Shown here: positions 1 to 62,550 of the stretch, one piece after another
How the letters are laid out: each line of letters begins with the position of its first letter
Numbering within the stretch: position 1 is the first letter of the stretch
Source of the DNA: an uncultured bacterium
GTDB lineage: Bacteria > Armatimonadota > Abditibacteriia > Abditibacteriales > Abditibacteriaceae
Direction of reading: 5' to 3'
Assembly: GCA_963843795.1 (NCBI GenBank)
Contig: CAWJLW010000006.1
Span: forward strand, 1,798,001 to 1,862,000
DNA: 64,000 nt
The notes under the pieces: model-generated
Seen by the model: only the letters and a program-made list of their open reading frames with translations
The model's database searches: none
Told to the model about the DNA's origin: nothing
Made by a program: the position numbers and the translations under genes

Positions 1-1170
1 ACCGGCAAGTACTTGCAGCGCGTTGTGGCGCGATGGCCACAAGCACAAGCTCAAAAACAGCCAGTACGCGGGCACGTCCCAGGTGTTGGTAATCACGAGC
101 GCAGCCATAACTACGCCTGCCAGCCACACGCGCCATGAAAGTGCGCGCGCCAGCCTAAGGGCAAGTCGTTGCCGCGTCGATTTTTCGCTTTTGGGCACTT
201 CTTCAAGTGAAATTGTGCGTGGCTGCATTTGCGCGAACAACGCCCAACCCAGCGATAAAATCAGCAAGCAAACCGGAACTGCGAAATAGTGCGCGTGTAA
301 ATCGGCGTAGGTAAAAGTGAAAAACGGAAATTCGTTGATGGTGTAATTAATGCCGCTACTGTCGCTAATCGGGTTGGGAATCACGCGCGAAGTCGAGAAG
401 TAATCGAGCGGAAGTTCGCCAAACGGCCAGTGGCGCAAACCATTGACATCGGTTTCGATCCATTGGCGCAGCGGTTCCAACGTGCCCAGAATCAAAACCA
501 GAAACGCCGCCACAGCGCCGCGCCGCAAGCGTCCGGTAATCGCACCGGCCAACGACATCAGCAGCGTGAAGCACAGCGCGGGCAGCGTCGCGGCCATCAA
601 ATTGTAAGTCCAGCGAATTGGCGCAGAAATCGCGTCGCTGAGTAAAGCGGTCTGCAAATGGCCCAGATAATAGTAACCGCCCAGCCGCGCGCCCGCGAGG
701 TAAGGATTGGGCGGAGGTAAATGATCGGCGCGCGCGCAGGCACCAATCAGCGCGATATCCATCGGTTTTTCGCCATTGTCAAAATCGGGCCACAAACACC
801 GCAGCGCGAAGAAGATCGCGAAAATTAGCAAAAAAGTCACGTCAATGGCGACGATGGCGCGCAGATGGCGACGCAATTGGGCCAGCAACTCGTTTTTTTC
901 GCACTTCCAGCGCCACAGGGAAAGCGCGGCCAAGAAAATCAGAATGATAGGCGCGAGGCGGACAGGCAAGCCGGCGTTTCCGGCCCAGAACGCACCCAGC
1001 GTCCACAGGGTCAGTAACAAAACGCGACCACACATCCAGCCACCGTCGGGCAAAGTTCCCAGCGTGCTGTCGGCAGAGCGCGCCATCCACAAACGCGCCG
1101 AGAAAGGAAAGGCGATGGGAGCCAGTAGCCACAACAAAAGCAACCAGGAAACGAAAACCGGAATCGGCAT
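1..1170 (-). CDS. DUF2298-like integral membrane protein (partial; continues beyond the window start)
   Basis: Manual translation from ATG 1170 (MPIPVFVSWLLLLW...) reads in one frame through FDNGEKPMDIA, PPPNPYLAG..GYYYLGH and YTINEFPFFTFTYADLHAH, motifs typical of DUF2298 proteins. Absent from the ORF track because no stop lies in the window. Confidence 0.75.
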   Translation of the reverse strand, partial: MPIPVFVSWLLLLWLLAPIAFPFSARLWMARSADSTLGTLPDGGWMCGRVLLLTLWTLGAFWAGNAGLPVRLAPIILIFLAALSLWRWKCEKNELLAQLRRHLRAIVAIDVTFLLIFAIFFALRCLWPDFDNGEKPMDIALIGACARADHLPPPNPYLAGARLGGYYYLGHLQTALLSDAISAPIRWTYNLMAATLPALCFTLLMSLAGAITGRLRRGAVAAFLVLILGTLEPLRQWIETDVNGLRHWPFGELPLDYFSTSRVIPNPISDSSGINYTINEFPFFTFTYADLHAHYFAVPVCLLILSLGWALFAQMQPRTISLEEVPKSEKSTRQRLALRLARALSWRVWLAGVVMAALVITNTWDVPAYWLFLSLCLWPSRHNALQVLAG

Positions 1171-1326
1171 AAATGGGGAGCGGCGCAATCGTAATTTTTG
1201 CGAAATTCGTTCAAATGTCGGTGTGGAACGCGGGAAACGCCCCGCAAGTACTTGCAGGGCGCTTTGGTTGCTATTTCAAACAACGCGTGCGATCAGAATC
1301 GCGCTTATTTTACCAAAACAGTTCCT

Positions 1327-1749
1327 ATGAAGAATTTTCAACTGCTCCCATTTTTGCGTCGCTTGTCTGCTACCGTCTTTATTTTTGCTGGAATTTTCAA
1401 GCTCGGCCTGCTCATTTTTAGTCTTGTTTCACCGTCGCGTTTGCCTTCGTTCACCGCATTATTAGCGACATTGAACGTACCATTTCCCCAAATTTTCGCA
1501 TTCACAGTGCCGCTACTCGAAATCATCGGCGGCGCGCAATTGTGGCGCAAACAACAAGTGCGAATATGGGCGGCGTTGCTAGCGTGCGATATGAGCGTGG
1601 CGATTGCCCTAGTTGGAATTCCCGCGAAATTCGGGCGCGCGCCGAAAATGGGCGCGCTGAGCGTTGGCGGTGAAAGCTGGCGTTTGCCACTGGAAATTGG
1701 CTTGTTGCTGATGTGCTTGTTTCTCGCGCTGCGCAAAAATGCCAAATGA
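1327..1749 (+). CDS. DoxX family membrane protein
   Basis: Small hydrophobic protein with FIFAGIFK...VPFPQIFAFTVPLLEIIGG and a DoxX-like helix pattern. Start placed at ATG 1327. Confidence 0.65.
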   Translation: MKNFQLLPFLRRLSATVFIFAGIFKLGLLIFSLVSPSRLPSFTALLATLNVPFPQIFAFTVPLLEIIGGAQLWRKQQVRIWAALLACDMSVAIALVGIPAKFGRAPKMGALSVGGESWRLPLEIGLLLMCLFLALRKNAK

Positions 1750-1821
1750 TAATGATGGAGTGCAAGTACTTGCACCACGCTTTATAGCCAAAACTGAGCG
1801 CGCGATTTAAACTCGCGCGTT

Positions 1822-3057: not shown

Positions 3058-3087
3058 TTGTGCGCTGCAAGTACTTGCAGCGCACAA
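3058..3087. repeat. 30-bp perfect palindrome centred on the GCAAGTACTTGC core
   Basis: TTGTGCGCTGCAAGT|ACTTGCAGCGCACAA. Confidence 0.9.
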
Positions 3088-4711: not shown

Positions 4712-5896
4712 ATGAACGATTCCGCATCTCCTATCGCCGCTCCCGCTGCTTTGCTTTCCACCGTTTCGGCTTTTCAAAATCAATTTGGCGACGATCAGGG
4801 TGTTTTCACCATCATCGCGCCAGGCCGCGTCAATCTCATCGGTGAACACGTCGATTACAACGATGGGTTGGTTTTGCCGATGGCCGTTTCACTACACACG
4901 GTTTTACGTTTGCGCGCCCGCACCGATAACCTTGTCGATTTATACGCCGTGAATTTCGATGCGCGCGCCAGCTTTGCCATTGACGACTTGGAAAAGCGTG
5001 GCGATTGGCTCGATTACGCGCAGGCCGTCGCGCAGCAGTTGCAACAGAAAGGTTTCGCGGTTGGCGGTTTGGAAGGCGTTATTGAAAGCAACGTTCCCAC
5101 GGCCAGCGGCCTTAGCTCATCGGCAGCCTTTGAAGTCGGAATGGCGCACGCGTTTTTGCACGCGGCAGGCGAAAGCTGCGATCCGATTACAATTGCGCAG
5201 TTATGCCAGCGTGCCGAAAACGAATTTGTCGGCGTTAACTGCGGCATTATGGATCAAACCGCCGTCGCCGCCTGCATTGCCGATCACGCGCTTTTGCTCG
5301 ATTGCCGCTCGCTTGAAACGGAACAGGTGCCATTGAAGTTGGGCGATTATTGCGTTGTAGTAATTGATTCGGGCGCACCGCGCGAATTAGCCAGTTCGGC
5401 ATATAACGAACGCCGCAGTCAGTGCGAAGCGGGCCTGCAAGTACTTGCCGAGCACATCGAAGGCGTGAAATCGCTGCGCGACGTTTCCCCACAGCAATTA
5501 TCCGATCACGCCAGTGAACTGGAGCCGGTTATTTTGCAGCGCGTGCGCCACGTTGTCAGCGAAATTGCGCGCACTCAAGAAGCGGTCGAAGTGTTGCGCA
5601 ACGGCGATTTAGGGCGTTTCGGTCAATTGATGAACGCTTCCCACGATTCGCTGCGCGACGACTACGCGGTTTCAAGCCGTGAATTGGATTGGATCGTTGA
5701 TAAATGTCGCGCGCACGAAGGCGTTTTGGGCGCGCGCATGACCGGAGCTGGTTTCGGCGGCTGCACGATTGCTTTGGTTAAGCGAAAAAACGCACAAACG
5801 TTGGTCGATACGTTGCCCGATGCTTACCAGGCCGCGACCGGCCTCACTGCACGCGCGTGGATTTGTGATGCCGAAGACGGTGCGCGGGTTCTTTAA
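4712..5896 (+). CDS. galK: Galactokinase
   Basis: APGRVNLIGEHVDYN, GLSSSAA, CGIMDQ, GARMTGAGFGG. Confidence 0.95.
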   Translation: MNDSASPIAAPAALLSTVSAFQNQFGDDQGVFTIIAPGRVNLIGEHVDYNDGLVLPMAVSLHTVLRLRARTDNLVDLYAVNFDARASFAIDDLEKRGDWLDYAQAVAQQLQQKGFAVGGLEGVIESNVPTASGLSSSAAFEVGMAHAFLHAAGESCDPITIAQLCQRAENEFVGVNCGIMDQTAVAACIADHALLLDCRSLETEQVPLKLGDYCVVVIDSGAPRELASSAYNERRSQCEAGLQVLAEHIEGVKSLRDVSPQQLSDHASELEPVILQRVRHVVSEIARTQEAVEVLRNGDLGRFGQLMNASHDSLRDDYAVSSRELDWIVDKCRAHEGVLGARMTGAGFGGCTIALVKRKNAQTLVDTLPDAYQAATGLTARAWICDAEDGARVL

Positions 5897-7875: not shown

Positions 7876-7899
7876 TGCAGCAAGTACTTGCAACACGCT

Positions 7900-9120: not shown

Positions 9121-9266
9121 AATTGAAAAAGCAGAGAACAAATTTGTGGCCCGCAAGTACTTGCAGCGAATAGAAAAGAGTATGATAGAAATTGCTCGCC
9201 TTTTCTCATTTGTTCGCGCAGCAAGTACTTGCGCGAGACAACCAACTTCAAACTTCCCTTGTCACC

Positions 9267-12200: not shown

Positions 12201-12624
12201 CCTGCTGGGGCGCACAGGCGACCGCTTGAGTTTGCAAGGCGCCAGCGATGGTTCCAGTCGCATTCGCCTGGGCACTGTAAAAGTCAGTAATCGGGGTCAA
12301 GACATTGCTTTCGCGCCTGAAACAATCGCACCCGATAAGGGAAACGAAATTTACCAACATCGTTTGAACGCGAGTGGCAAAGTCATTGATTTCGGCGATG
12401 TGCGCACCAATGGCAGCGTTTTGGTGCAGCGCGAAGGTGACGAATGGGTTTTGCGCGCTCTGCCGCGCGACAAAGAGTTTTCTCTGCAAGTACTTGCGGC
12501 GCGCTTTGGGCGTCCAGGCAATGTTCGCTGCGTCGATGGCGCCGCGCCCACGATGACACCGCAGGCCAACGGCAATTGGTGGAGTTTAAAGCTCAACGGC
12601 GCGCGCGAATATCGCTGGAAATAA
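9267..12624 (+). CDS. Large secreted putative glycoside hydrolase (DUF5696 / GH101-GH129-like TIM barrel), frameshift near 11484
   Basis: Signal peptide; HDWQRDGYDN, LHENYVDYY, YLDVHS, FGEG. Reading continues (DQYRMQEIAFGH) in another frame after 11484. Confidence 0.55.
10243..10272 (+). repeat. In-frame 15-bp tandem duplication (CGCCCGGTGGCGCGA x2)
   Basis: Exact tandem copy encoding PGGATPGGA. Confidence 0.85.
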
Positions 12625-12686
12625 CGCCGCAACGCCACGCGGCAAGTACTTGCCGCATCAAATTCCACAATTCAGGAGAACGACTG

Positions 12687-13715: not shown

Positions 13716-14713
13716 AGGAAATTAATTCCGGAAGATTGAAAATTGCGCTTGTGGGCACCGGCGGTTGGGCGCGCGAACATTGCCGCATTTTATCATCGCG
13801 CCCCGATGTCGATTTCTGCGCTGTTGTAGGCCGTAACGAAGAACGCACTGCGGCGCGCGCTGCTGAATATCGCACGCGAGCTTACACCCATATTGAGGAA
13901 ATGTTGGCCGAGCAGCAGCCAGATTTGGTGTGTGTGTGTTTGCCGAATCAGCATCACTTTGAACCAACGCTGCAAGTACTTGCAGCGGGCTTTCCCGTGT
14001 TGGCCGAAAAACCATTGGTTTTTGAAATGGCTCAAGCCGATGCGCTTTTGCAAGAAGCGAAAGAACGCGATTTGTTTTTCGCCATCAATTTCAATCATCG
14101 CTACGCCAAACCCTTGCAAATGGCGAAAGAAAAAATCGACAGTGGACAAGTCGGCGACATCATTTTTGCAACGTGGCGTTTTGGTGGCGAAGGTTCGAGC
14201 GATCATCCGCACGCGAATCTAATCGAAACTCAGTGCCACGCTTTCGACCAGTTAGAATGGCTGTGTGGCCCGATTGATTCACTCATGGCCGAAATGACAG
14301 AAAAAACCGGCAAGGGCTTTTCCACGCTGGTATTGAGTTTAAAATTTCAAAGCGGCGCAGTGGGAAGTTTGGTAGGCAGTTACGATTCAAGCTACGCTTA
14401 TCGCGACACGATGCGACTGGAAATCAACGGCACGCGCGGGCGCGCTTTAATTGAGGATACGGTGCGGCGTTTTGAATTTCAAAAGTCAGGCGACGAAACC
14501 GCGCAAGTGTGGGAAGCCGGATATTTCAACGATTTAGACCGCGAATTTCACCGCACGTTCGACCGCCACATGGACGAAATCTTGGCCGCGTTTCGTAGAG
14601 GCAACGCGCCGCCGATTGACGCGAGATGGGGAAAACGCGCTCTGCAACTGGCTCTGGCAGCGATAAAATCTTACGAGACAGGACAGCGCGTTATGACACC
14701 GACAAGTTCGTAA
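13712..14713 (+). CDS. Gfo/Idh/MocA oxidoreductase
   Basis: GTGGWA, EKP, NFNHRY; ATGA overlap with the upstream gene. Confidence 0.88.
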   Translation: MKEINSGRLKIALVGTGGWAREHCRILSSRPDVDFCAVVGRNEERTAARAAEYRTRAYTHIEEMLAEQQPDLVCVCLPNQHHFEPTLQVLAAGFPVLAEKPLVFEMAQADALLQEAKERDLFFAINFNHRYAKPLQMAKEKIDSGQVGDIIFATWRFGGEGSSDHPHANLIETQCHAFDQLEWLCGPIDSLMAEMTEKTGKGFSTLVLSLKFQSGAVGSLVGSYDSSYAYRDTMRLEINGTRGRALIEDTVRRFEFQKSGDETAQVWEAGYFNDLDREFHRTFDRHMDEILAAFRRGNAPPIDARWGKRALQLALAAIKSYETGQRVMTPTSS

Positions 14714-17464: not shown

Positions 17465-17593
17465 CGCGAAAAGCGCACAAACTTGTGAGCTGTTGCCTTT
17501 GCAGCGAAACTGTTTATCACAACGGATGACCAAATTTCGTGCTCTGCATAACGCGTGCAGCAAGTACTTGCGGAGCATTGACCCGAGACGATT

Positions 17594-18559: not shown

Positions 18560-18595
18560 AAAAATGACGCTGCAAGTACTTGCAGCGTCATTTTT
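18560..18595. terminator. 36-bp perfect palindrome on the repeat core with A/T tracts; likely bidirectional terminator
   Basis: AAAAATGACGCTGCAAGT|ACTTGCAGCGTCATTTTT between convergent genes. Confidence 0.75.
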
Positions 18596-19322
18596 ACGGA
18601 CACGCGCTTCGATCAAGCGTCGGCCCAGTGCCGCCAGTGATATAACCATCAGCGTAAATTTTTTCTGGCCGATACCATTTGATGTGGCCATCTAAAAATG
18701 CCAGATTGCTGCCTCCCAAATGGCGTGTAGAGAACGAATTTCCAGCAAACAGGGCGAAATACCCGTCGTCGGTCGAAGTGTTGGCGACGCTGTTGCCCGC
18801 CGCTTCTTCGCCCATTAGCATCCAACGTGAAGTGTCTTCAAAAGCCGCCAGTGATTTGCCCGTTTTGCCGCCATTGGTTTCTTTGTTCGCCGCATTGACA
18901 CAGCCATTCATTGCATACGAATTGCCCGAACGGCTTGAAGCGCTGCCATCAGACGGACAAACCCAGATTTGCACGCTTTTCAGATAAGGCTGCATTGAAC
19001 TTTGCGCCATCGCAAAAATGACGGTATTCGAGCCAAAGTTATTATACGGATTCCACACACCACTGATGCCATTGCTGATATTGCCATCACCGCCGTCGGC
19101 AGAAGTTGGCAATCGCTCGTCGTAATCTTGCGTATATTGAATAATGCCAAGCGTGATCTGCTTTAAGTTCGATTGACACGCGGCGCGGCGCGCGTTTTCC
19201 CTCGCGCGCGCAAACACGGGAAACAAAATCGCCGCGAGAATCGCGATTATCGCTATCACGACTAAAAGTTCGATGAGCGTGAAGCCTTGCAAGTACTTGC
19301 GGCGCCCGTGGGAAGTTTTCAT
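18594..19322 (-). CDS. Prepilin-type N-terminal cleavage / H-X9-DG (DUF1559) protein
   Basis: [44 protein letters not shown] ... [14 protein letters not shown]. Confidence 0.92.
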
Positions 19323-20870: not shown

Positions 20871-20925
20871 AGAAATTGGAAGAAATGAGCGCTGCAAGTA
20901 CTTGCAACACATTGTTTGTGCGGCG

Positions 20926-22509
20926 TTAATTGGCATTCTGCCAGATGGTGACCGGCGAAGAAAGTGTGAAAGGCAACTCTATACCCAACGCTTTGGAATT
21001 AGCTTCGGCGTCAGCGCTTTGAATGGTAATTTCGCCGAAGGCCGCCACATATTTTTGAGCTTTTAAATTCGCGGGCACTTCTTTCAAGCGCCAACTATAA
21101 TCGCTGGTTTGCGCTTTGGAAGCCGATGGTTTTAACTCGACGCTTTGCCATTTCGATTGCCGGAAATCGCGCGTCGCGCTGCTCGCCAACCACGCGCGCG
21201 CCGACTGAACTTTCATGTCATCGCTTGCAAGTACTTGCAGATGCCAAGTTGAATTTGCGGTTGCGTCCGCGACTTCGCCGGCTTTAGTGTTAAGCGCTAT
21301 GCCCTGCTCGCTTTGCAATTCAGCTTTAAGCTGTGGCAGCGCTTGGTTTTTGGCCAACGCACGAAACCAGGCGACCGAAATACCGACTACGCGCGCTTCG
21401 TTGCCTTCCAACATGTGACCGGCATTGGGCGCGGTGAAAATGTTAGTCGTGCCCGGCAGCGCAGTGCGATACAAATTAAAAGCATCGACTGGCCAATACG
21501 GATCGTTGGCCCCGGTGATAATTAATTTCGGCATGGTGAAACGCTCGCGATAAACGAACGGATCGACAATGCCAATTAAATCGCGTCCGCGTGGTGTGCC
21601 CACCAAATCAGGCAGGCCGCGCTTGGCGTAATCGTCGATTTGGGCCGAATAACGGCCCCACGCCGCCAGTTGATGCGGCATCTGCTGCGCCAGATTCAAA
21701 TTGTCATATACAATCGGAATAATTCCGACAACGCTCGCCTGCGGAGTTAAGGCGGAATTTTCAGCATCCGCGTTCTGGTTTTCAGAGCGCGCGACGTTTT
21801 GCGTGTTAAGCGCGGCGGCAGCGAGCCACGTTGTCCAACCGCGTTTAGATGCGCCGGACAACACCCATTTATCGATAACGTGCTCTTCGGGATTTTTCTT
21901 TTGTTGCGCCTGCGACCATTCACCAACCGCGCGCACAACCTGAGTAACGCTTTTGGTCATCGGCAGCAGAAGTGGCCAGGTCGCGTCTGGCGGATTGCCT
22001 TGAATATATTGAGCGAAGGTGTAAGCGATCAAATCATCTTCGCGACGCTCGAAAATAGGTTGGTTGGGCACATCCCACAGATAAACCACCGTCGCTTTCA
22101 TCGCATTGGCGGCGAGTTGTCCGAAAAAGCGCTCGCCGTCAGTGCCGCCGCCATACGAAATCATTAACAGCGCGCGGTCGGGAAATTCGTTTTCCTGTGG
22201 CGCGATAATATCAACGCGATGTTTCCATGTCGTGTTGTGCCATTGCTGCGAAGTGAGTTCAAGCGTCGTGACCGCGCCTTTGCGTGCGATTTCGCGCCAT
22301 GCAAAAACTGTTTCAGGGCGCGCGATATAATCATCCAAAGCTGTGCGAGGCAACTTTGCGGACGCTGTTACAGCTAATGCAGCGGCAGTCGTAGCATCAT
22401 CGCTCACGCCGCCGCGCGAAGGTGCGGCATTGCAACCGCTCAAAAAAGTTCCACTACCCAAAAAAGTGATAGCAAAAACAGTGTTTAAAATGTAGTAAGG
22501 ACGTATCAT
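20926..22509 (-). CDS. PqaA (PhoPQ-activated pathogenicity-related) family protein, probable lipoprotein
   Basis: LSGC lipobox; VPNQP, EDDLIAYT, LPMTKS, GASKRGWTTW, DPF.Y. Confidence 0.85.
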   Translation of the reverse strand: MIRPYYILNTVFAITFLGSGTFLSGCNAAPSRGGVSDDATTAAALAVTASAKLPRTALDDYIARPETVFAWREIARKGAVTTLELTSQQWHNTTWKHRVDIIAPQENEFPDRALLMISYGGGTDGERFFGQLAANAMKATVVYLWDVPNQPIFERREDDLIAYTFAQYIQGNPPDATWPLLLPMTKSVTQVVRAVGEWSQAQQKKNPEEHVIDKWVLSGASKRGWTTWLAAAALNTQNVARSENQNADAENSALTPQASVVGIIPIVYDNLNLAQQMPHQLAAWGRYSAQIDDYAKRGLPDLVGTPRGRDLIGIVDPFVYRERFTMPKLIITGANDPYWPVDAFNLYRTALPGTTNIFTAPNAGHMLEGNEARVVGISVAWFRALAKNQALPQLKAELQSEQGIALNTKAGEVADATANSTWHLQVLASDDMKVQSARAWLASSATRDFRQSKWQSVELKPSASKAQTSDYSWRLKEVPANLKAQKYVAAFGEITIQSADAEANSKALGIELPFTLSSPVTIWQNAN

Positions 22510-24480: not shown

Positions 24481-24582
24481 CAAAAGCCGTTGGCAACCGA
24501 TGCACCTGCTTAAACCTAGAAGCAGTAGAATAAAAATGTTCGGGAACTTGCGGTGCAAGTACTTGCAGGGGAGAATTGGGGC

Positions 24583-28679: not shown

Positions 28680-28717
28680 CAAAAAGCGCGTGGCAAGTAC
28701 TTGCCACGCGCTTTTTG
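28680..28717. terminator. 38-bp perfect palindrome on the repeat core; likely bidirectional terminator
   Basis: CAAAAAGCGCGTGGCAAGT|ACTTGCCACGCGCTTTTTG between convergent typA and the TPR gene. Confidence 0.75.
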
Positions 28718-34148: not shown

Positions 34149-34210
34149 ACGCGAGAAAATGTGCGGCAGCTACTTGTGGGGCACTGCAAGTACTTGCAAG
34201 CGTCAAAATG

Positions 34211-34878: not shown

Positions 34879-34922
34879 AAAAGCGCGCTGCAAGTACTCG
34901 CGAGTACTTGCAGCGCGCTTTT
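34879..34922. repeat. 44-bp perfect palindrome with a duplicated repeat core; likely clpP terminator
   Basis: AAAAGCGCGCTGCAAGTACTCG|CGAGTACTTGCAGCGCGCTTTT. Confidence 0.9.
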
Positions 34923-36808: not shown

Positions 36809-36848
36809 GTGGAAAGCGTGCAGCAAGTACTTGCTGCACGCTTTCCAC
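36809..36848. repeat. 40-bp perfect palindrome on the repeat core
   Basis: GTGGAAAGCGTGCAGCAAGT|ACTTGCTGCACGCTTTCCAC immediately after the stop codon. Confidence 0.9.
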
Positions 36849-38255: not shown

Positions 38256-38290
38256 AAATCCCAGTCCGCAAGTACTTGCACCACAATTTT

Positions 38291-39628
38291 ATGCCCAAAA
38301 TTCTGCTTTTGCCCGGTCATGCTGTCACTTGCAACGCCGCTTTTGAAGTTCCGGTTTCGCCCGCGATTCATATTGTAGACGGCGCGATCACTTACATCGG
38401 CTCGCGCGAATTTCAACCGGAATTTTGTGCCGATGAAACCATTGCCAACGAGCATTTCATCGCCCTACCCGGCTTGATTAACACGCACACGCACACCGCG
38501 ATGACGCTTTTACGCGGTTACGCCGACGACATGGCGCTGGAACCGTGGCTACAACAAAAAATTTGGCCCTTTGAAGCCAATCTCACGCCTGAAGACGTGG
38601 TTCTGGGAACCGAGCTGGCCGTTCTGGAAATGCTCAGTGGCGGCACAACTTGCTGCGCTGATATGTATTTTTCCTACGAAAATGGTGCGCAAATTTTCAT
38701 CGATAGCGGAATGCGCGCCTGTCCCGGCGGCGTGTTGCTCGGCTTTCTGCCCAATTCTGATGAGCGCTTGAACAATTCCATCGCTTTCGCGCGCGATTGG
38801 CAAGGCGCGGGCGATAATCGCATCACGCCTTTTCTCGCCCCGCATTCTCTCTACACCTGCAACGCACCGCAATGGGAAAAGTTTGTCGGCGCGGCGCATA
38901 AATACAATTTGATGCTTCACACGCACGTCGCCGAAACGCCGCGCGAAATTGCCGAAGTGCGCGCGCAATGGGGCGAGAAATACGGTCAAACGCCGCTGCA
39001 AGTACTTGCCGCTTTAGGCGCATTGGACGGCCCGCTTTTGGGCGCGCACGGCGTGTATTTGGATGAACATGATTGGGAAATTGTTGATAGCAAGCGTGAC
39101 AACAATGGGCGCTCAAATTTTCGGTTAGCGCATAATCCGACTTCCAATTTAAAGCTCGCTTCGGGCTTTGCCGATGTGCGCAAGTACTTGCAACACAATA
39201 TTACGACCGGAATCGGCACCGATGGCGCGGCTTCAAATAACGACTTGGATATGTGGGAAGAAATGCGGCTGGCCGCTCTGCTCCACAAAGCGACGACCGG
39301 CGATGCGACGGTCGTTTCCGCGCAGCAAGCCTTGCAAATGGCGACACTCGAAGGCGCGAAATGTTTGAATTTAGACGCCAAAATCGGCAGCTTGGAAGTC
39401 GGCAAACGCGCCGATATTATCCTGATGGATTTCGATAAACCACACCTTACGCCGCTGCACAATGTCGTGTCGCATCTTGTTTATGCTGCTAAAGCGAGTG
39501 ACATTGATACGGTGATTATCGACGGCCACATTCGCGTGCGCAATGGCGAAGTGCTTTCTCTGGAAAGTGAACGTGTGTTGAGGTTAACCCAGAAGCGGGC
39601 GTTAGAATTGGCGAATTTGGCGGGCTGA
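38291..39628 (+). CDS. mtaD: Metal-dependent amidohydrolase, MTA/SAH deaminase-like
   Basis: PGLINTHTH, LLRGYADD, APHSLY, HTHVAET, HNPTSNLKLASG, GTDGAASNN. Confidence 0.8.
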   Translation: MPKILLLPGHAVTCNAAFEVPVSPAIHIVDGAITYIGSREFQPEFCADETIANEHFIALPGLINTHTHTAMTLLRGYADDMALEPWLQQKIWPFEANLTPEDVVLGTELAVLEMLSGGTTCCADMYFSYENGAQIFIDSGMRACPGGVLLGFLPNSDERLNNSIAFARDWQGAGDNRITPFLAPHSLYTCNAPQWEKFVGAAHKYNLMLHTHVAETPREIAEVRAQWGEKYGQTPLQVLAALGALDGPLLGAHGVYLDEHDWEIVDSKRDNNGRSNFRLAHNPTSNLKLASGFADVRKYLQHNITTGIGTDGAASNNDLDMWEEMRLAALLHKATTGDATVVSAQQALQMATLEGAKCLNLDAKIGSLEVGKRADIILMDFDKPHLTPLHNVVSHLVYAAKASDIDTVIIDGHIRVRNGEVLSLESERVLRLTQKRALELANLAG

Positions 39629-39699: not shown

Positions 39700-39733
39700 A
39701 AAGTGGCGCTGCAAGTACTTGCAGCGCCACTTT
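39700..39733. terminator. 34-bp perfect palindrome on the repeat core; likely bidirectional terminator
   Basis: AAAGTGGCGCTGCAAGT|ACTTGCAGCGCCACTTT between convergent genes. Confidence 0.7.
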
Positions 39734-39739
39734 TCGTTT

Positions 39740-42907: not shown

Positions 42908-42963
42908 TTAATTTCTCCCAGATTGATCGCATCAAACACACGGCAAGTACTTGCAGGACAAAT

Positions 42964-43609
42964 TTATCGCTTCCACGCCACGATGCGCAACCGCCGATAA
43001 TCGGCCCAACAGTCTTTTTCGACGGACAATTTTCCGTGCTACAGCTTCTAACGCGCGCCAATTCGCTTCGAAGGAGCGTCGGACGGTATAATTGCGCGCA
43101 TGAATCTTCCATTTGGGCGCTTCCCAAAATCGAACAATATCCGACAACTGACGAAAAAGAGTTGCTGAGCAGATCGAAATCGCTACATCTTATCGTTGCC
43201 CATGGTTTTTCGATAACAGGCTCAACGAACGCAATGTTGCCGATTCTTCCGACATTCGCAGCCCAAACGGCGACCGATTTTTAAGGCGCGATAACTGCAA
43301 GCGATGACGTTTTGGTGTTGAATCCATTGCAGCGCGGAATTGGAAAATACGGTATCGAAATCGTGCTCGACATTAAAATCGCGACTATCAATGATTTGCC
43401 AGTTTAGATTGGAGTGCAAGTACTTGCCTCGTGCATTTTCGATCATTTCGGGCGAAACGTCCAAGTCCAGCATGAAATAGGCGTGTTGTGCCGCACACCA
43501 AATCGAGCACACGTTCATGAGGCTGCGGAGCTAAAACTTTAATCAAATCGGCGGCACACTGGTAAACATAAGCGTGTTGCTGTTTGTAAGTTTCCGCGTC
43601 CCATTACAT
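42964..43609 (-). pseudogene. Decayed class I SAM-dependent methyltransferase
   Basis: Manual translation: M*WDAETYKQQHAYVYQ..DLIKVLAPQPHERVLDLVCGT, DVSPEMIENARGKY, FDTVFSNSALQW and C-terminal ADYRRLRIVAWKR*, spread over several frames with an in-frame stop at codon 2. Confidence 0.75.
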
Positions 43610-46436: not shown

Positions 46437-46447
46437 AGAAAAAGCAT

Positions 46448-46481
46448 ATAAGTGTGCTGCAAGTACTTGCAGCACACTTAT
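46448..46481. repeat. 34-bp perfect palindrome on the repeat core after ppc
   Basis: ATAAGTGTGCTGCAAGT|ACTTGCAGCACACTTAT. Confidence 0.9.
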
Positions 46482-48113: not shown

Positions 48114-48151
48114 CAAATGCCCCGCTGCAAGTACTTGCAGCGGGGCATTTG
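48114..48151. repeat. 38-bp perfect palindrome on the repeat core after the SulP gene
   Basis: CAAATGCCCCGCTGCAAGT|ACTTGCAGCGGGGCATTTG. Confidence 0.9.
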
Positions 48152-48585: not shown

Positions 48586-50151
48586 ATGAGCGAAAAAGAA
48601 TCAACAAAAGCAGCCACTCATCACGACCATCACAGTCCGATGACAATGCGTGGCGTCACGCGACCCTCAATGAGTGGTGAGATGGCGCACGATGGCGACG
48701 ACAAACCAAAAGACGATAAGAAATCGGATGACATGATGGAAATGTCGCACGAAGATCGCGAAAAGATGCGCCAAAAGCATCACGAACAAACGTTGTGGGT
48801 GCCGATCACAGTTATGATGCTAGGCGTGTGGTTGTTCGCTTCGGCGTTCACGTTCGGCCATCAACCATTAAATCCGCGCGTGATTGAAATGACTGCCAAT
48901 CGCGGCTGGTTTCCCTTGGAAATGCGCGGCGAACTGATGTTCTGGAGCGATATTTTTTCCGGTCTGGCTTTGATTGTTCTGGGGGGAATTTGGGCGTGGA
49001 CGCCACGTTTTCCGGTTGTGCCGTGGGCGGCGTGCTTTGTCGGTATTTGGTTGCAATTTGCGCCGCTGCTGTTCTGGGCACCGACGGCGGTTTCATATCT
49101 CAACGACACATTTGTCGGCGCGTGGATTATCGCGCTGACAATTTTAATCGCTGGAATGCCGCCGATGATTATGATCATGAAAATGGGCGCTCAAGTTCCA
49201 CCGGGCTGGAGCTACAATCCTTCTTCGTGGCTGCAACGCGCGCCGCTAGCAGCAACAGGTTTTCTGGGCTGGCTGGTTTCACGTTATCTCGCGGCGTATC
49301 AATTGGGCTACGTAGATCACGTCTGGGAGCCATTTTTTAACGACGGCAGCGTGCAAGTTCTCACGTCAAAAATGTCGGAATCGCTGCCAATTTCCGATGG
49401 CGGTCTGGGTGCGTTTGCTTACACCTTCGAGTTCTTAATGGCCTTCATGGGCGGCGTCAGTCGCTGGCGCACGATGCCGTGGATGGTGGTTTTCTTCGGC
49501 ATTCTGGTGATTCCTCTGGGTTTCACGCACATTTTTCTGGTTAGTTCACAACCGGTTGTGGTCGGTCACTGGTGCACGATGTGCATAGCGGCAGCGCTGA
49601 TTATGCTGGTGATGATTCCACTGAGCGTCGATGAAGTGATTGCGATGGGCCAGTTCGTGTTGAAAAAAGTGCGCGACGAGGGCGAACCATTCTGGCCGGT
49701 TTTTTGGAAAGGTGGCTCGGTTGGTGAAATGGACGATAAGGACGAGCGCACTCCTCACTATACTGCGTCGCCCCATAAAACTGTGCCTGCAATGATCTGG
49801 GGCGTCAGCGCACCGTGGACTCTCATCGCAAGTACCTGCATCGGTCTTTGGCTGCTTTACACACCCACACTTTTCGGTACAGCGAATTATCTCGAAGGTA
49901 ATGATCACCTTTTGGGCGCGCTTGCCGTGACGATTGCTGTAACCTCGATGGCCGAAGTGCTGCGCGTCGGTCGCTTTCTGCTGACGCTGATTGGCGTGTG
50001 GTTAATCGTTGCGCCATTCGTTCTGAGTGGTAGCGCTTCCACTACGGACAGCATAAGCACGGTTATCGCCGGTTTGTTGCTGATGGCTTTGAGCATCCCG
50101 CGCGGTGCGATTCACGAATCGTATGGCGGCTGGGAACGCTTCATCAAATGA
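48586..50151 (+). CDS. SPW-repeat / vitamin K epoxide reductase-like membrane protein
   Basis: His/Met-rich N-terminus, PPGWSYNPSSW, RWRTMPW, CTMC redox motif, YGGW. Confidence 0.75.
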   Translation: MSEKESTKAATHHDHHSPMTMRGVTRPSMSGEMAHDGDDKPKDDKKSDDMMEMSHEDREKMRQKHHEQTLWVPITVMMLGVWLFASAFTFGHQPLNPRVIEMTANRGWFPLEMRGELMFWSDIFSGLALIVLGGIWAWTPRFPVVPWAACFVGIWLQFAPLLFWAPTAVSYLNDTFVGAWIIALTILIAGMPPMIMIMKMGAQVPPGWSYNPSSWLQRAPLAATGFLGWLVSRYLAAYQLGYVDHVWEPFFNDGSVQVLTSKMSESLPISDGGLGAFAYTFEFLMAFMGGVSRWRTMPWMVVFFGILVIPLGFTHIFLVSSQPVVVGHWCTMCIAAALIMLVMIPLSVDEVIAMGQFVLKKVRDEGEPFWPVFWKGGSVGEMDDKDERTPHYTASPHKTVPAMIWGVSAPWTLIASTCIGLWLLYTPTLFGTANYLEGNDHLLGALAVTIAVTSMAEVLRVGRFLLTLIGVWLIVAPFVLSGSASTTDSISTVIAGLLLMALSIPRGAIHESYGGWERFIK

Positions 50152-51206: not shown

Positions 51207-51242
51207 AAAAAGCGCTCTGCAAGTACTTGCAGAGCGCTTTTT
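51207..51242. terminator. 36-bp perfect palindrome on the repeat core; likely bidirectional terminator
   Basis: AAAAAGCGCTCTGCAAGT|ACTTGCAGAGCGCTTTTT between convergent genes. Confidence 0.75.
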
Positions 51243-54176: not shown

Positions 54177-54214
54177 AAATTGGCGTGCTGCAAGTACTTG
54201 CAGCACGCCAATTT
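54177..54214. repeat. 38-bp perfect palindrome on the repeat core
   Basis: AAATTGGCGTGCTGCAAGT|ACTTGCAGCACGCCAATTT. Confidence 0.9.
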
Positions 54215-55360: not shown

Positions 55361-56719
55361 TCAACGCCGCAATTGTCGCGAATTTAAGCGGTCCATGAAT
55401 TCGCTATATGGCAAGCTCAAGCCATAATCCAGCGGGTCGCGATTGTTGGCGCGGCGCGCATTTTCTTCCTGTCGGCGTGCTGCAAGTACTTGCAGCATGG
55501 CATCGCAGCGTGCGGGGAATTGGGCGGCCACGTTGTGCTTTTCTTCGGGGTCGTTTTTCAAATCGAATAGCAAAGGTTGATTGTCGCGCGGGTTGCCGTA
55601 GATGTCCACCAGAGCGCGGCCCTCTGCGGTTTGCGATAGTGGCAGAATGAGTTTCCAATCGTGCGTGCGCAGTGCGATGGAGCATTGGCGCGTTGATTCC
55701 ACGCTGAGAATCGAATCGCGTCCGCTGAAGTTTTCGCCTTGCAAAGCGGGCGCGAAGCTTTGGCCGGTTAATTCGTAATTCGGCGACGATAATTCGCAGC
55801 ATTCGATTAAAGTTGGCAGAATGTCTTCGTGCGAAATGAGCGCGTTGCAGGTACTTGCAACGCGCTTTTCGGGTGTTTTCCATAGCAAAGTGAGTCGCGT
55901 GATGGCGTCGTATAAACCGTGATGATCGAAATAAACGCCGCCTTCGCCGAACGCTTCGCCGTGATCGCTAAGCGCGATGAGATGCGAATTGTCCCACAGA
56001 TTTAATCCTTTCAGCGAAGCGAATAAACGTCCGCAGTGATTATCGACATACGAAATTTCGCCATCGTATTGCGCGACGACGTAATCATAATCGTCTTGCA
56101 CTTTCAATTTCATATCGCCCAGAAACGCCTGATAATATTCGGGCGCGTGTTCTATCGCCGCGCTGTAGCGCGCATTGGTATCGGCTTGTGGCTGATAGTG
56201 CATCGTATCGAAAGGCGCGGGCGGGCTGTAGGGCGAATGCGGATCCCATAAATGTAGCCACAAGAAAAACGGTCGGTCTTGCAACTGTTGGCAATAAGAA
56301 ATCGCGCGGTCGGTGAGCTGTTCGCCCTGATTGGAAAACGGCTGATAGAGGAAGCTGGAATAATAATCGAAACCGCGCGAAAACCAGCCGCCGCGCCCGT
56401 GCGCCTGCGTCGCCAAGTTGTCGATGGCGACCGTGACGTAACCGGCATCTTTGGCCAGTTGCGCCAAAGGCTGAATTTCGGGAGCCAAACGTTGCTCGCT
56501 GGCGTGCGCGGTGATGCCGTGACGCAGCGGATGCAAGCCGCTCATCAAAGTGGTGAAGCTCGGCATCGTCGGAATGCCCGCCGCAAACGCGCGTTCGAAA
56601 CGCACAGATTCAGTGGCCAGCGCGTCCAAATTGGGCGAAGTGTTGCGCCCGTAACCGTAACAGCCCAGATGATCGGCGCGCAAACTGTCTATCGTCAAGA
56701 GAACGATGTTGGGTTTCAT
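55361..56719 (-). CDS. Sulfatase-like hydrolase (Thr at the nucleophile position)
   Basis: IDSLRADHLGCYGY, PTMPSF, WDPHSPY, YDGEI, SDHGE, HHGLY. Confidence 0.85.
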   Translation of the reverse strand: MKPNIVLLTIDSLRADHLGCYGYGRNTSPNLDALATESVRFERAFAAGIPTMPSFTTLMSGLHPLRHGITAHASEQRLAPEIQPLAQLAKDAGYVTVAIDNLATQAHGRGGWFSRGFDYYSSFLYQPFSNQGEQLTDRAISYCQQLQDRPFFLWLHLWDPHSPYSPPAPFDTMHYQPQADTNARYSAAIEHAPEYYQAFLGDMKLKVQDDYDYVVAQYDGEISYVDNHCGRLFASLKGLNLWDNSHLIALSDHGEAFGEGGVYFDHHGLYDAITRLTLLWKTPEKRVASTCNALISHEDILPTLIECCELSSPNYELTGQSFAPALQGENFSGRDSILSVESTRQCSIALRTHDWKLILPLSQTAEGRALVDIYGNPRDNQPLLFDLKNDPEEKHNVAAQFPARCDAMLQVLAARRQEENARRANNRDPLDYGLSLPYSEFMDRLNSRQLRR

Positions 56720-56732: not shown

Positions 56733-56764
56733 AAATCACGCTGCAAGTACTTGCAGCGTGATTT
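56733..56764. repeat. 32-bp perfect palindrome on the repeat core between the two sulfatase-like genes
   Basis: AAATCACGCTGCAAGT|ACTTGCAGCGTGATTT. Confidence 0.9.
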
Positions 56765-58350: not shown

Positions 58351-58477
58351 AACCACAGAGAACACAAACAGCACAAAGAGCTCAGGAATTTTTATAGAAA
58401 AACGAATTTAAGGCGCGGCAAGTACTTGCCGAACCAAAATCCCAAAAATCTCTGTGAACTCTGCGTCCTCTGTGGTT
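58351..58477. repeat. Small inverted-repeat element (AACCACAGAG...CTCTGTGGTT) enclosing a core palindrome
   Basis: Perfect 10-bp terminal inverted repeats followed by imperfect CACAGAG-like iterations; GCAAGTACTTGC at 58418 inside. Confidence 0.65.
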
Positions 58478-60344: not shown

Positions 60345-60392
60345 AACGTTTTCCCTTTGATTCAACGCTGCAAGTACTTGCAGCACAGATTT

Positions 60393-61478
60393 CTATAAGT
60401 TCACGCGCGTCCCGCTTTGCGCGCTTTGATAGGCTGCCAAACACATCGCAACACTGACTTTTCCGTCGCGCGCGTTCGCCGCATTTTCGGATTGCGTTCT
60501 GTTCAGCAAATCATCAATCCAAGGCCGCACAATCGCTTTCAAACGCTCGTAATGCGAAATGGGTAAGTCGTGCCGAAATGATTCCCACTGGCTATCCAAT
60601 TTGCGGAACAATTTCAACGCGATGGCATCGTTTGGCGCGTGCGGCGTGGAAACGCCATCGTCCCAATTCTGAATAATTACGCCTTGGTCGCCGTAAATTT
60701 CGCAGGTGTTTTCGCCCGCCAAAGTCACGCTGCTGTTGCACAAGCTCGCCATGCTGCCATCGGCCCAGCGATAAATCGCCAAGCCGGTATCATCGGGCGC
60801 GATTGTCGTGAGAACGTTGCCGATTTCGGCCATCACAGAAACCGGCGCGCCTTGCAACCAATAGAGAAAATCCGCCGCGTGAACCGCATCATCGAAAAAC
60901 ATTCCGACATTTTGCACGGGGTCGATGTGCCACGCTTGCGGGCTGTGCGGCAGTTGGTCGTTGAACAGAAAATTGATACAGTGGCGGCGGCGCAGCAAGT
61001 TCACGCGCCCGACTTCGCCGTTTTCAATCCAACGCTTGATTTGCAAGTTCAGCGGGTCGGTGCGCATTTGAAACGCCATCTGAAACGGCACACCCGCGTT
61101 TTCGACGGCTTGGATGATGCGCTCGCAATCTTCCAGCGTGGTCGCCATCGGCTTCTGACACAGAATCGCTTTGCCCGCAGCCGCCGCCAATTCGATTAAA
61201 TCGGCATGGCGATTGGTTTCGCTGGTGATAATTACGGCATCAATATCGGGGCGTGCCAGTAGCTTTTCGGCGCTATTTTCAAATTGCAAACCGAAGCGTT
61301 CGCAGTGCGGGCGCGCGCGTTCGGAGTCGCTGTCCCACGCGGCAAGTACCTGCGCGTCCGAAAACGTCGCGATTTGGTCACAATATGCGACGGCGTGGCC
61401 GTGCGCAAAACTCAAAATTCCAATTCCCAGCGGCGCGTTGAACGAAGTACTGAACTTCGCATTGTCTTTTGGGTGCAT
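60393..61478 (-). CDS. Gfo/Idh/MocA oxidoreductase
   Basis: LSFAHGH, LCQKP, AFQMR, DDAVH. Confidence 0.85.
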   Translation of the reverse strand: MHPKDNAKFSTSFNAPLGIGILSFAHGHAVAYCDQIATFSDAQVLAAWDSDSERARPHCERFGLQFENSAEKLLARPDIDAVIITSETNRHADLIELAAAAGKAILCQKPMATTLEDCERIIQAVENAGVPFQMAFQMRTDPLNLQIKRWIENGEVGRVNLLRRRHCINFLFNDQLPHSPQAWHIDPVQNVGMFFDDAVHAADFLYWLQGAPVSVMAEIGNVLTTIAPDDTGLAIYRWADGSMASLCNSSVTLAGENTCEIYGDQGVIIQNWDDGVSTPHAPNDAIALKLFRKLDSQWESFRHDLPISHYERLKAIVRPWIDDLLNRTQSENAANARDGKVSVAMCLAAYQSAQSGTRVNL

Positions 61479-61560
61479 AAATGCAGCATAACCTTCTGGC
61501 CGCACTCGGTCTACGATGGAAGCGCTTGCTCTATGGGGGCGATGCTGCTATTTTCTAAGC

Positions 61561-62550
61561 ATGAAATCTCTCGCCGCGCCCAAGCCTAGCGTGCCGCATT
61601 TGCGCGCTCAACAGCATTTCGCAGCCAATTTCCCCTTTCATATTGCCGATGTTTTGCAAGGCCCATTATACGAGCATTCGCACGAATTTTTCGAAGTGGT
61701 TTACGTGCGGCGCGGACGTGGCGAACATCTTCTCAACGGTCGCAACTACGCCCTGAAAGCGGGCGATTTGTACCTCATTCGGCCTGGCGAAATCCACGCC
61801 TATGCGCCGCTACCACATCAGCAAATGCGCATCACGAATGTGCTATGGATGCCCGCTTTGACCGAGCGTTTGTGGCAAACGCAGGAATTCATCGGAAGCG
61901 CCACATGGCCCGCTTTAGACTTTCTGGCACCCGCCAAAATTCAGCACGATTCACCCCACAGCGCAGCGCATTTTTCGCCACGGTTGCATCTTTCGCCGCG
62001 CGCCGCTTATCGCGTGGAAACGCTTTTAGACGAAATGCGACGCGAACAAAACAGCGGCGCGCCCGGCTGTCAGGCGTTGCTGTGCCACTTGTTTTGTACC
62101 TTGATGATTCTGCTGTCGCGCGAATGGCAAAAACAGAACGCCGCCTCTGCGACAAACAGCGCTGCAAGTACTTGCAGTGCGCAAAAATCGCAAACTGCCG
62201 CACCGCACGAACGCGGCGATGTGGTCGGCGAAGCGATTGCGTGGATCGAAGAAAATTATGCGCGTCCGGTGCGCGTTTCTGATGTAGCGTCTCATGTTGC
62301 TCTCAGTGCGAGCCGATTGTCGCATGTTTTCAAAGAGCGCACAGAGCGCGGCGTCATCGAATATCTGCACGAATATCGCATCGCGCGCGCGGCGCGATTG
62401 CTGTGCGAAACATCCCAAAGCGCGCAAAATATCGCGCAACAAACCGGCTTCGGCGACGCGCGCTTTTTTCATCGCTTGTTTCGCCGTCACACCGGCTGCA
62501 CGCCAGCCCAATTTCGCCGCCAATTCCAAGATACCGAGATTTTGGGTTGA
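61561..62550 (+). CDS. AraC family transcriptional regulator (cupin + HTH)
   Basis: HSHEFFE cupin; SRLSHVFK, RIARAARLL, GFGDARFFHRLFRRHTGCTPAQFR. Confidence 0.92.
   Translation: MKSLAAPKPSVPHLRAQQHFAANFPFHIADVLQGPLYEHSHEFFEVVYVRRGRGEHLLNGRNYALKAGDLYLIRPGEIHAYAPLPHQQMRITNVLWMPALTERLWQTQEFIGSATWPALDFLAPAKIQHDSPHSAAHFSPRLHLSPRAAYRVETLLDEMRREQNSGAPGCQALLCHLFCTLMILLSREWQKQNAASATNSAASTCSAQKSQTAAPHERGDVVGEAIAWIEENYARPVRVSDVASHVALSASRLSHVFKERTERGVIEYLHEYRIARAARLLCETSQSAQNIAQQTGFGDARFFHRLFRRHTGCTPAQFRRQFQDTEILG

Follow-up and report, generated by a model that had tools for sequence, protein, structure and literature searches.

A hyper-abundant 12-base palindrome kept throughout an Abditibacteriaceae genome and written into its proteins by substitution

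The DNA considered here is a 64-kb stretch (hereafter the window) of the genome of an uncultured bacterium of the family Abditibacteriaceae (G000; assembly of 4.30 Mb, 53.6% G+C), in which a short palindrome recurs both between and within genes. A first-pass annotation made from the letters alone had noticed the repeat inside proteins, and the palindrome it implied is GCAAGTACTTGC, a perfect 12-base word present in 40 exact copies in the window, against 0.00 expected from 100 dinucleotide-preserving shuffles. Over the whole genome 2,567 exact copies occur, one per 1,675 bp and some on every contig, compared with only 506 carrying a single mismatch, which are spread over the 36 possible variants and are mainly transitions. 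These thousands of perfect copies are probably maintained by a force on the DNA itself, and they enter proteins, by substitution, where the protein tolerates them. In the window, 29 of the 40 copies lie outside called genes and 11, the minority class, in proteins. Its features are listed below, each being an exact copy of the word unless otherwise indicated and an extension being the perfect continuation of the palindrome on each side.

5..16, minus strand: in the DUF2298 gene, read LQVLA
1244..1255: divergent spacer, no palindromic extension
1762..1773: intergenic
3067..3078: intergenic, 9-nt perfect extension per side
5437..5448, plus strand: in galactokinase, read LQVLA; 11 orthologues of A-I-L-Q type, indel-free
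7880..7891: convergent spacer, no extension
9153..9164: divergent spacer
9221..9232: divergent spacer, the same as that of 9153..9164
12486..12497, plus strand: in the Pfam-negative open reading frame (ORF) 11413-12624, read LQVLA
12642..12653: intergenic, tandem spacer
13972..13983, plus strand: in a Gfo/Idh/MocA oxidoreductase, read LQVLA
17560..17571: intergenic
18572..18583: convergent spacer, terminator-like; apex of a perfect palindrome of 36 nt that has A/T tracts
19289..19300, minus strand: leader peptide of a DUF1559 prepilin, read RKYLQ directly before the G|FTLIELL site
20894..20905: immediately upstream of a UbiD-family gene; a stop codon in the alignment with the other genome of the genus (G001) has it taken as 5' untranslated
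21227..21238, minus strand: in the PhoPQ_related (PqaA-like) gene, read LQVLA; QLRAN in G001, gap-free
24555..24566: intergenic
28693..28704: hairpin apex with 13-nt perfect arms and A/T tracts, convergent spacer; in the terminator scan
29864..29875: hairpin apex, 6-nt extension; in the terminator scan
30394..30405: hairpin apex, 11-nt extension, A/T tracts
32213..32224: hairpin apex, 12-nt extension, divergent spacer
34186..34197: intergenic
34879..34922: composite 44-nt perfect palindrome of two overlapping imperfect words round a central CGCG; not an exact 12-mer
36316..36327, plus strand: in the GH127 gene, read VQVLA
36823..36834: hairpin apex, 14-nt extension, tandem spacer
38268..38279: immediately upstream of the amidohydrolase start
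38998..39009, plus strand: in the amidohydrolase, read LQVLA; 11 orthologues of I-Q-T-L-K type, indel-free at the site
39180..39191: in the amidohydrolase, read RKYLQ; 11 orthologues with E-K-F-L-Q or P-D-Y-L-K, indel-free
39711..39722: hairpin apex, 11-nt extension, convergent spacer
42943..42954: divergent spacer
43416..43427: divergent spacer
46459..46470: hairpin apex, 11-nt extension, terminator-like on both strands
48127..48138: hairpin apex, 13-nt extension
49828..49839: one-mismatch copy GCAAGTACCTGC in a VKOR/SPW gene, read ASTC
51219..51230: hairpin apex, 12-nt extension, convergent spacer
54190..54201: hairpin apex, 13-nt extension
55482..55493, minus strand: in the C-terminal tail of the sulfatase, read LQVLA
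55847..55858: one-mismatch copy GCAGGTACTTGC in the sulfatase, read ASTC on the minus strand
56743..56754: hairpin apex, 10-nt extension, between two minus-strand genes
58418..58429: intergenic
60370..60381: intergenic
61342..61353, minus strand: one-mismatch copy in a Gfo/Idh/MocA gene, read QVLA via CAG-GTA-CTT-GCC
62164..62175, plus strand: in the cupin-HTH linker of an AraC-family regulator, read ASTC
62562..62573: intergenic, directly after the AraC stop codon

All 11 exact in-gene copies, as well as the three one-mismatch copies (49828, 55847 and 61342), were found where the first-pass annotation had located them and with the peptides it had given. The gene identities that it proposed were supported by Pfam for DUF2298, galactokinase, Gfo/Idh/MocA, the DUF1559/N_methyl prepilin, PhoPQ_related, GH127, amidohydrolase, sulfatase and AraC, and lacked such support for the ORF 11413-12624, called a glycoside hydrolase (GH), which had no Pfam match at E<=1e-5. 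For the genome as a whole, a crude codon-usage caller made by the authors gave 3,340 genes covering 84% of the sequence, and on this gene set 1,758 copies are intergenic (about 68%; 2.63/kb), 743 lie wholly within genes (29%; 0.20/kb) and 66 straddle a gene end. The intergenic density is 13-fold above that within genes, and along the length of genes the copies are evenly distributed.

The two strands of GCAAGTACTTGC are identical when read 5' to 3', which limits the translations open to a gene, whatever its orientation, to three: GCA-AGT-ACT-TGC giving ASTC (frame 1), xGC-AAG-TAC-TTG-Cxx giving KYL (frame 2) and xxG-CAA-GTA-CTT-GCx giving QVLA (frame 3). The palindrome had been said to be written into proteins in all three frames, and this is the case genome-wide, with 480 of the in-gene copies read as QVLA, 149 as KYL and 114 as ASTC. 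The over-representation of these peptides, for which a check had been proposed, is large: QVLA occurs 556 times in the proteome against 37.8 expected from residue frequencies (15-fold), KYL 317 times against 113, and ASTC 134 times against 3.8 (35-fold), and more than 100 extra cysteines are owed to GCAAGTACTTGC. Moreover, 491 of the 556 QVLA (88%) are coded as CAAGTACTTGCN (CAA-GTA-CTT-GCN), in line with the suspicion that this coding would be nearly universal and in departure from general codon usage, which predicts about 0.4% (GTA makes up 7% of the Val and CTT 9% of the Leu codons of this genome). Similarly, AAGTACTTG codes for 196 of the 317 KYL and the exact word for 114 of the 134 ASTC. 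Control peptides, comprising 23 permutations each of QVLA and ASTC and 5 of KYL, stayed near expectation, the exceptions AQVL and ALQV overlapping the flanks of the word itself. The use of rare codons together with the excess of peptides shows that the word makes the peptides and the peptides do not make the word. Selection at the level of peptides is therefore ruled out by three unrelated peptides, rare codons and permuted controls near expectation, and the earlier argument that protein function cannot explain the same nucleotides in different frames holds on these grounds.

Preferences at the word are not confined to its 12 bases. The flanks are dyad-symmetric, showing a preference for T at position -1 and for C at position -2 (66-67% over all copies), followed farther out by alternating G+C-rich bases and by an A tract from -11 to -8 with its T tract mirrored opposite. 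Within genes the preference (CT...AG) is kept but weaker, 58% of the copies having C at -2 and 48% having T at -1. The word recognised exceeds 12 nt and has graded flanks, with about 16 bp of graded information in all. It is because of this flank preference that seven of the eight exact QVLA sites of the window read LQVLA (CTG) and that GCA is the most frequent Ala codon after the word.

A comparison of orthologues, proposed earlier as the way to tell a substitution from an insertion, was made with G001 (63% complete, 560 contigs), of which 80 contigs totalling 450 kb were compared, taking alignments of at least 45% identity and looking for gaps within +-6 aa of the word. G001 orthologues covered 48 in-gene copies, 35 of them free of gaps within that distance, and the word stood opposite residues at 46 of the 48 sites; at the other two, word-coded residues faced a gap, three residues in one case and one in the other. 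Orthologues from 11 family genomes without the word gave the same picture, with AILQ-type residues at the QVLA site of galK, QTLK or RVLE at the QVLA site of the amidohydrolase and KFLQ or DYLK at its KYLQ site, the three sites being indel-free. These alignments establish the in-gene copies as substitutions. Gaps close to the word were more frequent than in the background (13/48 versus 12.8%; binomial p = 0.008), which places the sites in indel-prone, variable stretches, and a caveat applies to the prepilin leader with the copy at 19289, which on a reading of the sequences is 3 aa longer than its G001 orthologue. The amidohydrolase also carries a 4-residue insertion (EKYG region, around 38960-38985, residues ~229-236) that is absent from all 11 family orthologues and precedes the QVLA word by eight residues.

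The codon test and the insertion test both favour a force on the DNA word itself, be it selection or molecular drive, as had been suggested from the window. Hyper-abundant words of short length have been described in three groups of bacteria, namely the uptake signal sequences (USS) of Pasteurellaceae, the DNA uptake sequences (DUS) of Neisseriaceae and the highly iterated palindrome HIP1 (GCGATCGC) of cyanobacteria, whose function has been under debate for some three decades. Repetitive extragenic palindromic (REP) sequences are of another nature, being extragenic imperfect palindromes dependent on a REP-associated tyrosine transposase (RAYT) gene.

A small mobile palindromic element of about 34-36 nt, similar to REPs or to miniature inverted-repeat transposable elements, could have spread by insertion and left the bare 12-mers by decay, and we regard this origin as very improbable. 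It would explain the consensus flanks common to intergenic hairpin copies and their bimodal extension lengths, with a peak at 10-13 nt, and the word does resemble REPs and bacterial interspersed mosaic elements in being a short repeated palindrome located at the ends of genes and capable of hairpin formation; there is also a Y1-transposase-like match, a weak 80-position Y1_Tnp fragment at C6:752058-752288 (E 4e-7). The in-gene copies, aligned to orthologous residues without indels, refute an insertional origin for their class, and 2,567 perfect 12-mers with variable flanks are the reverse of what decay from a master copy would leave. In the hairpins, the stems differ among copies yet are perfectly complementary, no full RAYT or transposase is associated, and the word is missing from the mobile islands described below. 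Elements of the REP/RAYT type in particular were rejected, given 743 in-gene copies, 29% of the total and bare 12-mers made by substitution, and only the weak Y1 fragment.

In-gene copies occupy poorly conserved positions and are fewer in codon-biased genes. Nucleotide identity to G001 in the flanks of the coding sites of G000 is 58%, versus 66% across the whole of the aligned coding sequence (192.8 kb), and the density of the word in the highest quartile of codon score (0.137/kb) is half that in the lowest (0.280/kb). In the window, the galK copy lies between the GHMP kinase N- and C-domains, the AraC copy in the cupin-HTH linker and that of the sulfatase in the C-terminal tail; those of the amidohydrolase, Gfo and GH127 genes are within domains.

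Between genes, the word is often the centre of a larger structure. As many as 538 of the 1,758 intergenic copies are extended by at least 6 nt per side as a perfect palindrome, with a mode of 10-13 nt and the consensus AAAAA-GCGCGCT-word-AGCGCGC-TTTTT, and the stems vary among copies but stay perfectly complementary. With a minimum stem of 8 and a loop of 3-8, perfect hairpins number 1,775 in the genome, and their apex is the exact word in 717 and a one-mismatch word in a further 72; when only the 414 terminator-like hairpins flanked by a T or A run are taken, the word is at the apex in 233. Judged by sequence, this subset corresponds to the definition of intrinsic (rho-independent) terminators, a G+C-rich stem-loop with a T tract at the 3' end of a gene, and is best called terminator-like. 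The word occurs in 67% of convergent spacers (3.97/kb), usually with a stem, in 49% of tandem spacers, at a median of 29 nt past the upstream stop codon, and in 51% of divergent spacers, where 216 of the 260 copies are stemless or nearly so. These last copies indicate that the word is not simply a terminator. In a terminator scan of positions 28001-48000, seven of the nine matches with at least 10 stem pairs were exact words and one more was the composite of two imperfect words. This composite palindrome (34879..34922) is the strongest match of the scan, and its inner halves resemble the dialect of genus g6 presented below. Downstream of the amidohydrolase, no synteny with G000 was found in 11 family genomes.

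A function at the RNA level would see the word (stem GCAA/UUGC, loop GUAC) as the apex of a hairpin standard in this genome, either a bidirectional intrinsic terminator or the 3' end of mRNAs, which an RNA-binding protein might recognise, with the in-gene copies as by-products. The share of terminator-like hairpins with the word, the perfect extension of at least 5 nt in 202 of 296 convergent-spacer copies, the short distance from the upstream stop codon and the strongest matches of the scan would all follow from such a role. It is nonetheless improbable, for the in-gene copies are mostly stemless (478 without extension) and yet entail rare codons and residue changes, the divergent spacers, where no termination takes place, hold mostly stemless words, and in-gene copies follow the spacing of the intergenic ones.

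This spacing is more regular than chance. On the main contig, counts per 20 kb have a mean of 12.5 and a standard deviation of 3.25, and are thus under-dispersed. When the non-genic copies were kept fixed and 629 in-gene copies were randomly re-placed in coding sequence (1,000 permutations), the coefficient of variation of the spacing was 0.898+-0.011 against an observed 0.826, and gaps longer than 4 kb numbered 111+-6 against an observed 70, with none of the 1,000 permutations as low in either measure. In-gene copies occupy the stretches where intergenic copies are far apart, and such gap filling suggests that a copy is needed, or advantageous, every few kilobases. The force on the word thus yields roughly regular intervals.

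One possibility raised by this regularity is that the word binds an abundant dimeric nucleoid or chromosome-organising protein and is selected for regular chromosomal spacing. The dyad symmetry, the information graded across ~16 bp, the under-dispersed counts and the filling of gaps by in-gene copies are all consistent with it, and chromosome-level functions have been argued for HIP1 (available text of PMC5861425). We give it little probability, as no candidate protein was identified, the fast turnover of dialects within the genus fits tags of self and non-self better than architectural sites, and the absence of the word from islands is equally expected under any slow accumulation.

Three stretches of the main contig are free of the word and contain degenerate word-like sequences only. 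The first, at 56-82 kb of the main contig, carries IS21 IstA/IstB and a DDE transposase, and the second (C6:517601-543500; 26 kb, 49% G+C) the type I restriction-modification genes HsdM and HsdR together with a Schlafen/AlbA_2 protein. The third (C6:3590001-3623414, at a contig end; 33 kb, 59.5% G+C) holds a conjugative type IV secretion set with VirB4, TrbL/VirB6, VirB8/9 (CagX), TrbI/VirB10 and VirD4-like genes, and probably represents either a plasmid joined in error or an integrated conjugative element. Mobile islands being devoid of it, the word marks resident DNA, and the force that maintains it acts slowly on imported DNA.

Among 40 related genomes, the exact 12-mer occurs only 0-3 times per genome, G001 having none. 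The 8-mer core AAGTACTT, on the other hand, is found 2,965 times in G000, 2,725 times in G001 and 0-90 times in the other relatives. The word of G001 is CAAAGTACTTTG, of the same type as that of public locus L135, and a word (T)CGAGTACTCG(A) is found in four genomes of genus g6 (G009, G012, G015 and G019) and in loci L136 and L137. The dialects GCAAGTACTTGC, CAAAGTACTTTG and TCGAGTACTCGA share an AGTACT centre; the specificity of the word drifts between species, and AGTACT stays constant. About 70 loci of other Armatimonadota had no such word. In a 450-kb sample, the G001 word appeared fuzzier, with the full 12-mer in ~40% of the cores, and was seldomer part of long hairpins.

Turnover can be followed in 192 coding alignments of the two species, where core sites number 51 in G000 and 115 in G001, a more than twofold density over the 192.8 kb. 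Eleven fall in the same aligned column, that is 11/51 of the G000 sites versus 7.8% for a control of any perfectly conserved 8-mer, and at these shared sites the outer bases match the dialect of each species, for example GCGCAAGTACTTGCC opposite GACAAAGTACTTTCA. Many of the sites present only in G001 are synonymous rewrites, such as AAG-TAC-TTT opposite AAA-TAT-TTC in G000, and a further example of synonymous rewriting between the sister species is AAATATTTC in G000 versus AAGTACTTT in G001.

Another genome of genus g6, G006, has an asymmetric 10-mer instead, GTACGGTCGA, with 104 matches in both orientations in 120 kb (six 20-kb samples). It occurs mostly as inverted pairs with two A/T bases between them, at the apex of terminator-like hairpins, and also as singles. 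Its first nine bases with the preceding AA are one base off the Hin-type USS core given in the available text of PMC1626085, which may be a coincidence. In a genome of genus g5 (G005:C66:1-20000), the most frequent 10-mer, AAATGCAAAA, occurs 10 times in 20 kb and may be a separate iterated word of that genus.

The AGTACT centre was surveyed in 27 family genomes with TCATGA as control hexamer. It is hyper-abundant in six of them (3,241 copies versus 626 of the control in one case, 4,150 versus 236 in another), intermediate in four and purged in 17, which are the four g5 genomes (1-15 versus 654-1,172) and the 13 g2 genomes (1-126 versus 305-1,419). The g5 figures, from G005, G008, G011 and G014, refer to 5-6 Mb per genome. 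In samples of both genera GTAC is purged too, with none in 20 kb of G005 against 23 expected. To judge from these counts, the near-absence of AGTACT in g5 and g2 is a strong and long-term avoidance of a restriction-type site.

A candidate modifying enzyme is present in G000, which encodes a single PF01555 (N6_N4) methyltransferase of 256 aa, beta-class and adenine-type (N6-methyladenine, m6A), with M.RsrI as closest solved relative (E 1.6e-36). The gene adjoins RNase PH and RdgB, and no restriction gene is nearby. Full-length orthologues with at least 56% identity are found in 19 of 25 other family genomes, and in G005, G014 and G041, all of them purged of AGTACT, the orthologue adjoins a Mrr_cat/HARE-HTH endonuclease. 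In G000, G001 and G006 the methyltransferase has no such neighbour, and a search of genera g1 and g6 gave no orthologue of the endonuclease but only paralogues of 31-37% identity. This distribution would fit a restriction system that has lost its nuclease in the word-rich lineages, which we take as a lead and not as a result. The methyltransferase at G020:C88:3115-3876 is 75% identical to that of G000, that of G001, from the same genus, being 74% identical, and the gene may have been transferred within the family. Type I-type N6 methylases also occur in G000, one of them within the island. The RE_ScaI family (PF09569) had no match in five genomes, in a search where the controls were equally silent.

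The word could then be the preferred site of a solitary m6A methyltransferase, or of a reader of its mark, as conceived for HIP1 and without any part in uptake; it would be needed every few kilobases by a process guided by methylation, for instance the discrimination of strands during mismatch repair, and selection would be remaking sites lost in an ancestral GTAC/AGTACT purge. A restriction-type palindromic centre constant across dialects, its purging in 17 and hyper-abundance in six of the 27 family genomes, the endonuclease adjoining the methyltransferase in G005, G014 and G041 and not in G000, G001 and G006, the filling of gaps, and the proposal of methyl-directed repair made by Elhai for HIP1 (available text of PMC4390886) all argue for it. 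We nevertheless consider this explanation unlikely. A four- or six-base site is enough for methylation, yet 12-16 bases are conserved; the methyltransferase is a candidate only; and orthologues without a detected partner endonuclease coexist with a purged AGTACT in four g2 genomes. Vsr and C5 methyltransferases were absent from G000, G001 and G002, and a conversion drive of the very-short-patch type, being unlikely in G000, was rejected for that genome.

The explanation to which we assign about an even chance is that GCAAGTACTTGC is a tag by which self DNA is recognised when taken up or recombined, methylation of the AGTACT centre being a possible means of recognition. It is favoured because the whole pattern matches the biology of USS and DUS, in the substitutional origin of the copies, the excess of perfect over mismatched ones, the dialects round a core, the use in terminators and the absence from acquired DNA, and because the sister genome G006 has an asymmetric word in inverted pairs. 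According to this proposal, a dyad-symmetric (dimeric) reader would recognise ~12-16 bp, alleles bearing the word would gain an advantage in transmission or fitness, and substitutions that make the word would reach fixation at any site where QVLA, KYL or ASTC is acceptable to the protein. Terminator hairpins would be the cheapest place for a palindrome, and the 13-fold intergenic density would result.

Several observations weigh against a self tag read in uptake or recombination. The mechanism itself is inferred by analogy and, to our knowledge, the known USS and DUS are not palindromic. Competence genes are present in G000 (ComEC, a ComEA-like protein, DprA, eight secretin matches and many prepilins) and equally in G002, which has no such word, so that they do not discriminate. 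Orthologues of the methyltransferase for which no partner endonuclease was detected occur in the AGTACT-purged g2 genomes G007, G018, G020 and G024, which means that a solitary candidate enzyme alone does not explain hyper-abundance. Intergenic positions of the word are not conserved between G000 and G001: in 46 syntenic spacers, the G001 word was found in 12 of the 28 that are positive in G000 and in 8 of the 18 that are negative, without association. The terminator scan of 28001-48000 gave no excess over shuffles (42 versus 37.4), and the counts of 743, 1,758 and 66 copies are approximate, owing to the crude gene caller.

A wider proposal, put forward only tentatively, extends the self tag to a hitherto undescribed system of the whole family Abditibacteriaceae. 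A restriction-type core (AGTACT/GTAC), purged in most genera, would have flipped in at least two lineages to an evenly spaced, hyper-abundant palindromic self-tag, whose outer bases give the species dialects and which would be read as a methylated duplex by the uptake or recombination machinery.

Compared with USS and DUS, the word has a similar density of ~1 per 1-2 kb and is likewise made in genes by mutation and not by insertion. The available text of PMC1626085 describes USS as arising by mutation, with perfect copies exceeding singly mismatched ones, as they do here (2,567 versus 506). Uptake sequences are found in all frames and at poorly conserved residues with inflated peptides, are missing from genes without homologues, and in N. 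meningitidis lie in ORFs in 34.5% of cases, against 29% here (available text of PMC2817400). Dialects of DUS have a common core (PMC3630211, in the part available), as do those of this family, and, again as for USS and DUS, the word is absent from recently acquired DNA and used in terminator hairpins. Unlike them, GCAAGTACTTGC is a perfect palindrome centred on a restriction-type site purged by sister genera, its host is of Abditibacteriaceae type and not proteobacterial, and the inflation of peptides is larger (QVLA 15-fold, ASTC 35-fold), in keeping with a longer word.

With HIP1 it shares a perfect palindrome hyper-abundant in coding and non-coding DNA, the use of non-preferred codons with fewer copies in codon-biased genes (PMC5861425, available text), and dyad-symmetric extensions whose outer bases vary with lineage round a constant centre (PMC4390886, available text). 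The link of HIP1 to a solitary (orphan) methyltransferase would have its counterpart here in a candidate enzyme. The conservation of HIP1 sites between genomes above control is paralleled to a limited extent, with 11/51 versus 7.8% in coding DNA and no association in the 46 syntenic spacers. The word differs from HIP1 in sequence and phylum, in length (12-16 nt versus 8-10 nt), in its 13-fold intergenic bias and regular place at the apex of terminator hairpins, and in a faster turnover, the dialect differing inside one genus. Methylated HIP1 raises transformation, according to the available part of bioRxiv 2024.09.10.611283, and uptake by C. jejuni is restricted to DNA methylated at RAATTY (PMC10046745, available text), so that the RAATTY/CtsM pair, a palindromic self tag marked by m6A, is a precedent for an uptake signal read through methylation. 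RAATTY differs in being a degenerate 6-mer, not described as a hyper-abundant long word in the part of that paper available, and methylation in the present case is hypothetical.

The kind of feature is thus known (USS, DUS, HIP1); the word, the host lineage, the change of dialect inside one genus and the coexistence of purged and hyper-abundant genomes in a single family were absent from the searched literature. GCAAGTACTTGC itself was not found there (supplements of the cited papers being outside the search), the matches listed for the 8-mer core AAGTACTT were unrelated papers only, as were those on palindromes in Abditibacteri-, and among the matches listed on competence Abditibacterium was unmentioned. 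The word is an independent case of a hyper-abundant word, in a barely studied soil phylum, and provides a natural experiment: a single family includes 17 genomes purged of AGTACT and six in which this core is hyper-abundant, close relatives hold three palindromic dialects and one asymmetric word, and the methyltransferase has an endonuclease beside it in some genomes and none nearby in others. Questions such as drive or selection, the need for methylation and the way dialects change become testable. If the word were indeed part of a methylated self-tag system, it would be the first case of a USS/DUS-like system in bacteria other than Proteobacteria and would connect uptake sequences mechanistically with the HIP1 of cyanobacteria.

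On the practical side, the word distinguishes native from acquired DNA, is a candidate aid for transforming these organisms, and confuses k-mer assemblers. Metagenomic contigs of a soil run (X1, from Logan) were short, of low depth and of mixed strains, and were left out of the analysis of polymorphism and 3' ends. Unitigs of this run join word hairpins that lie kilobases apart in the window, 28715/30417 to 39705 and 39726 to 46456, apparent mis-joins that probably arise because the repeated word and its similar stems mislead assemblers of this type.

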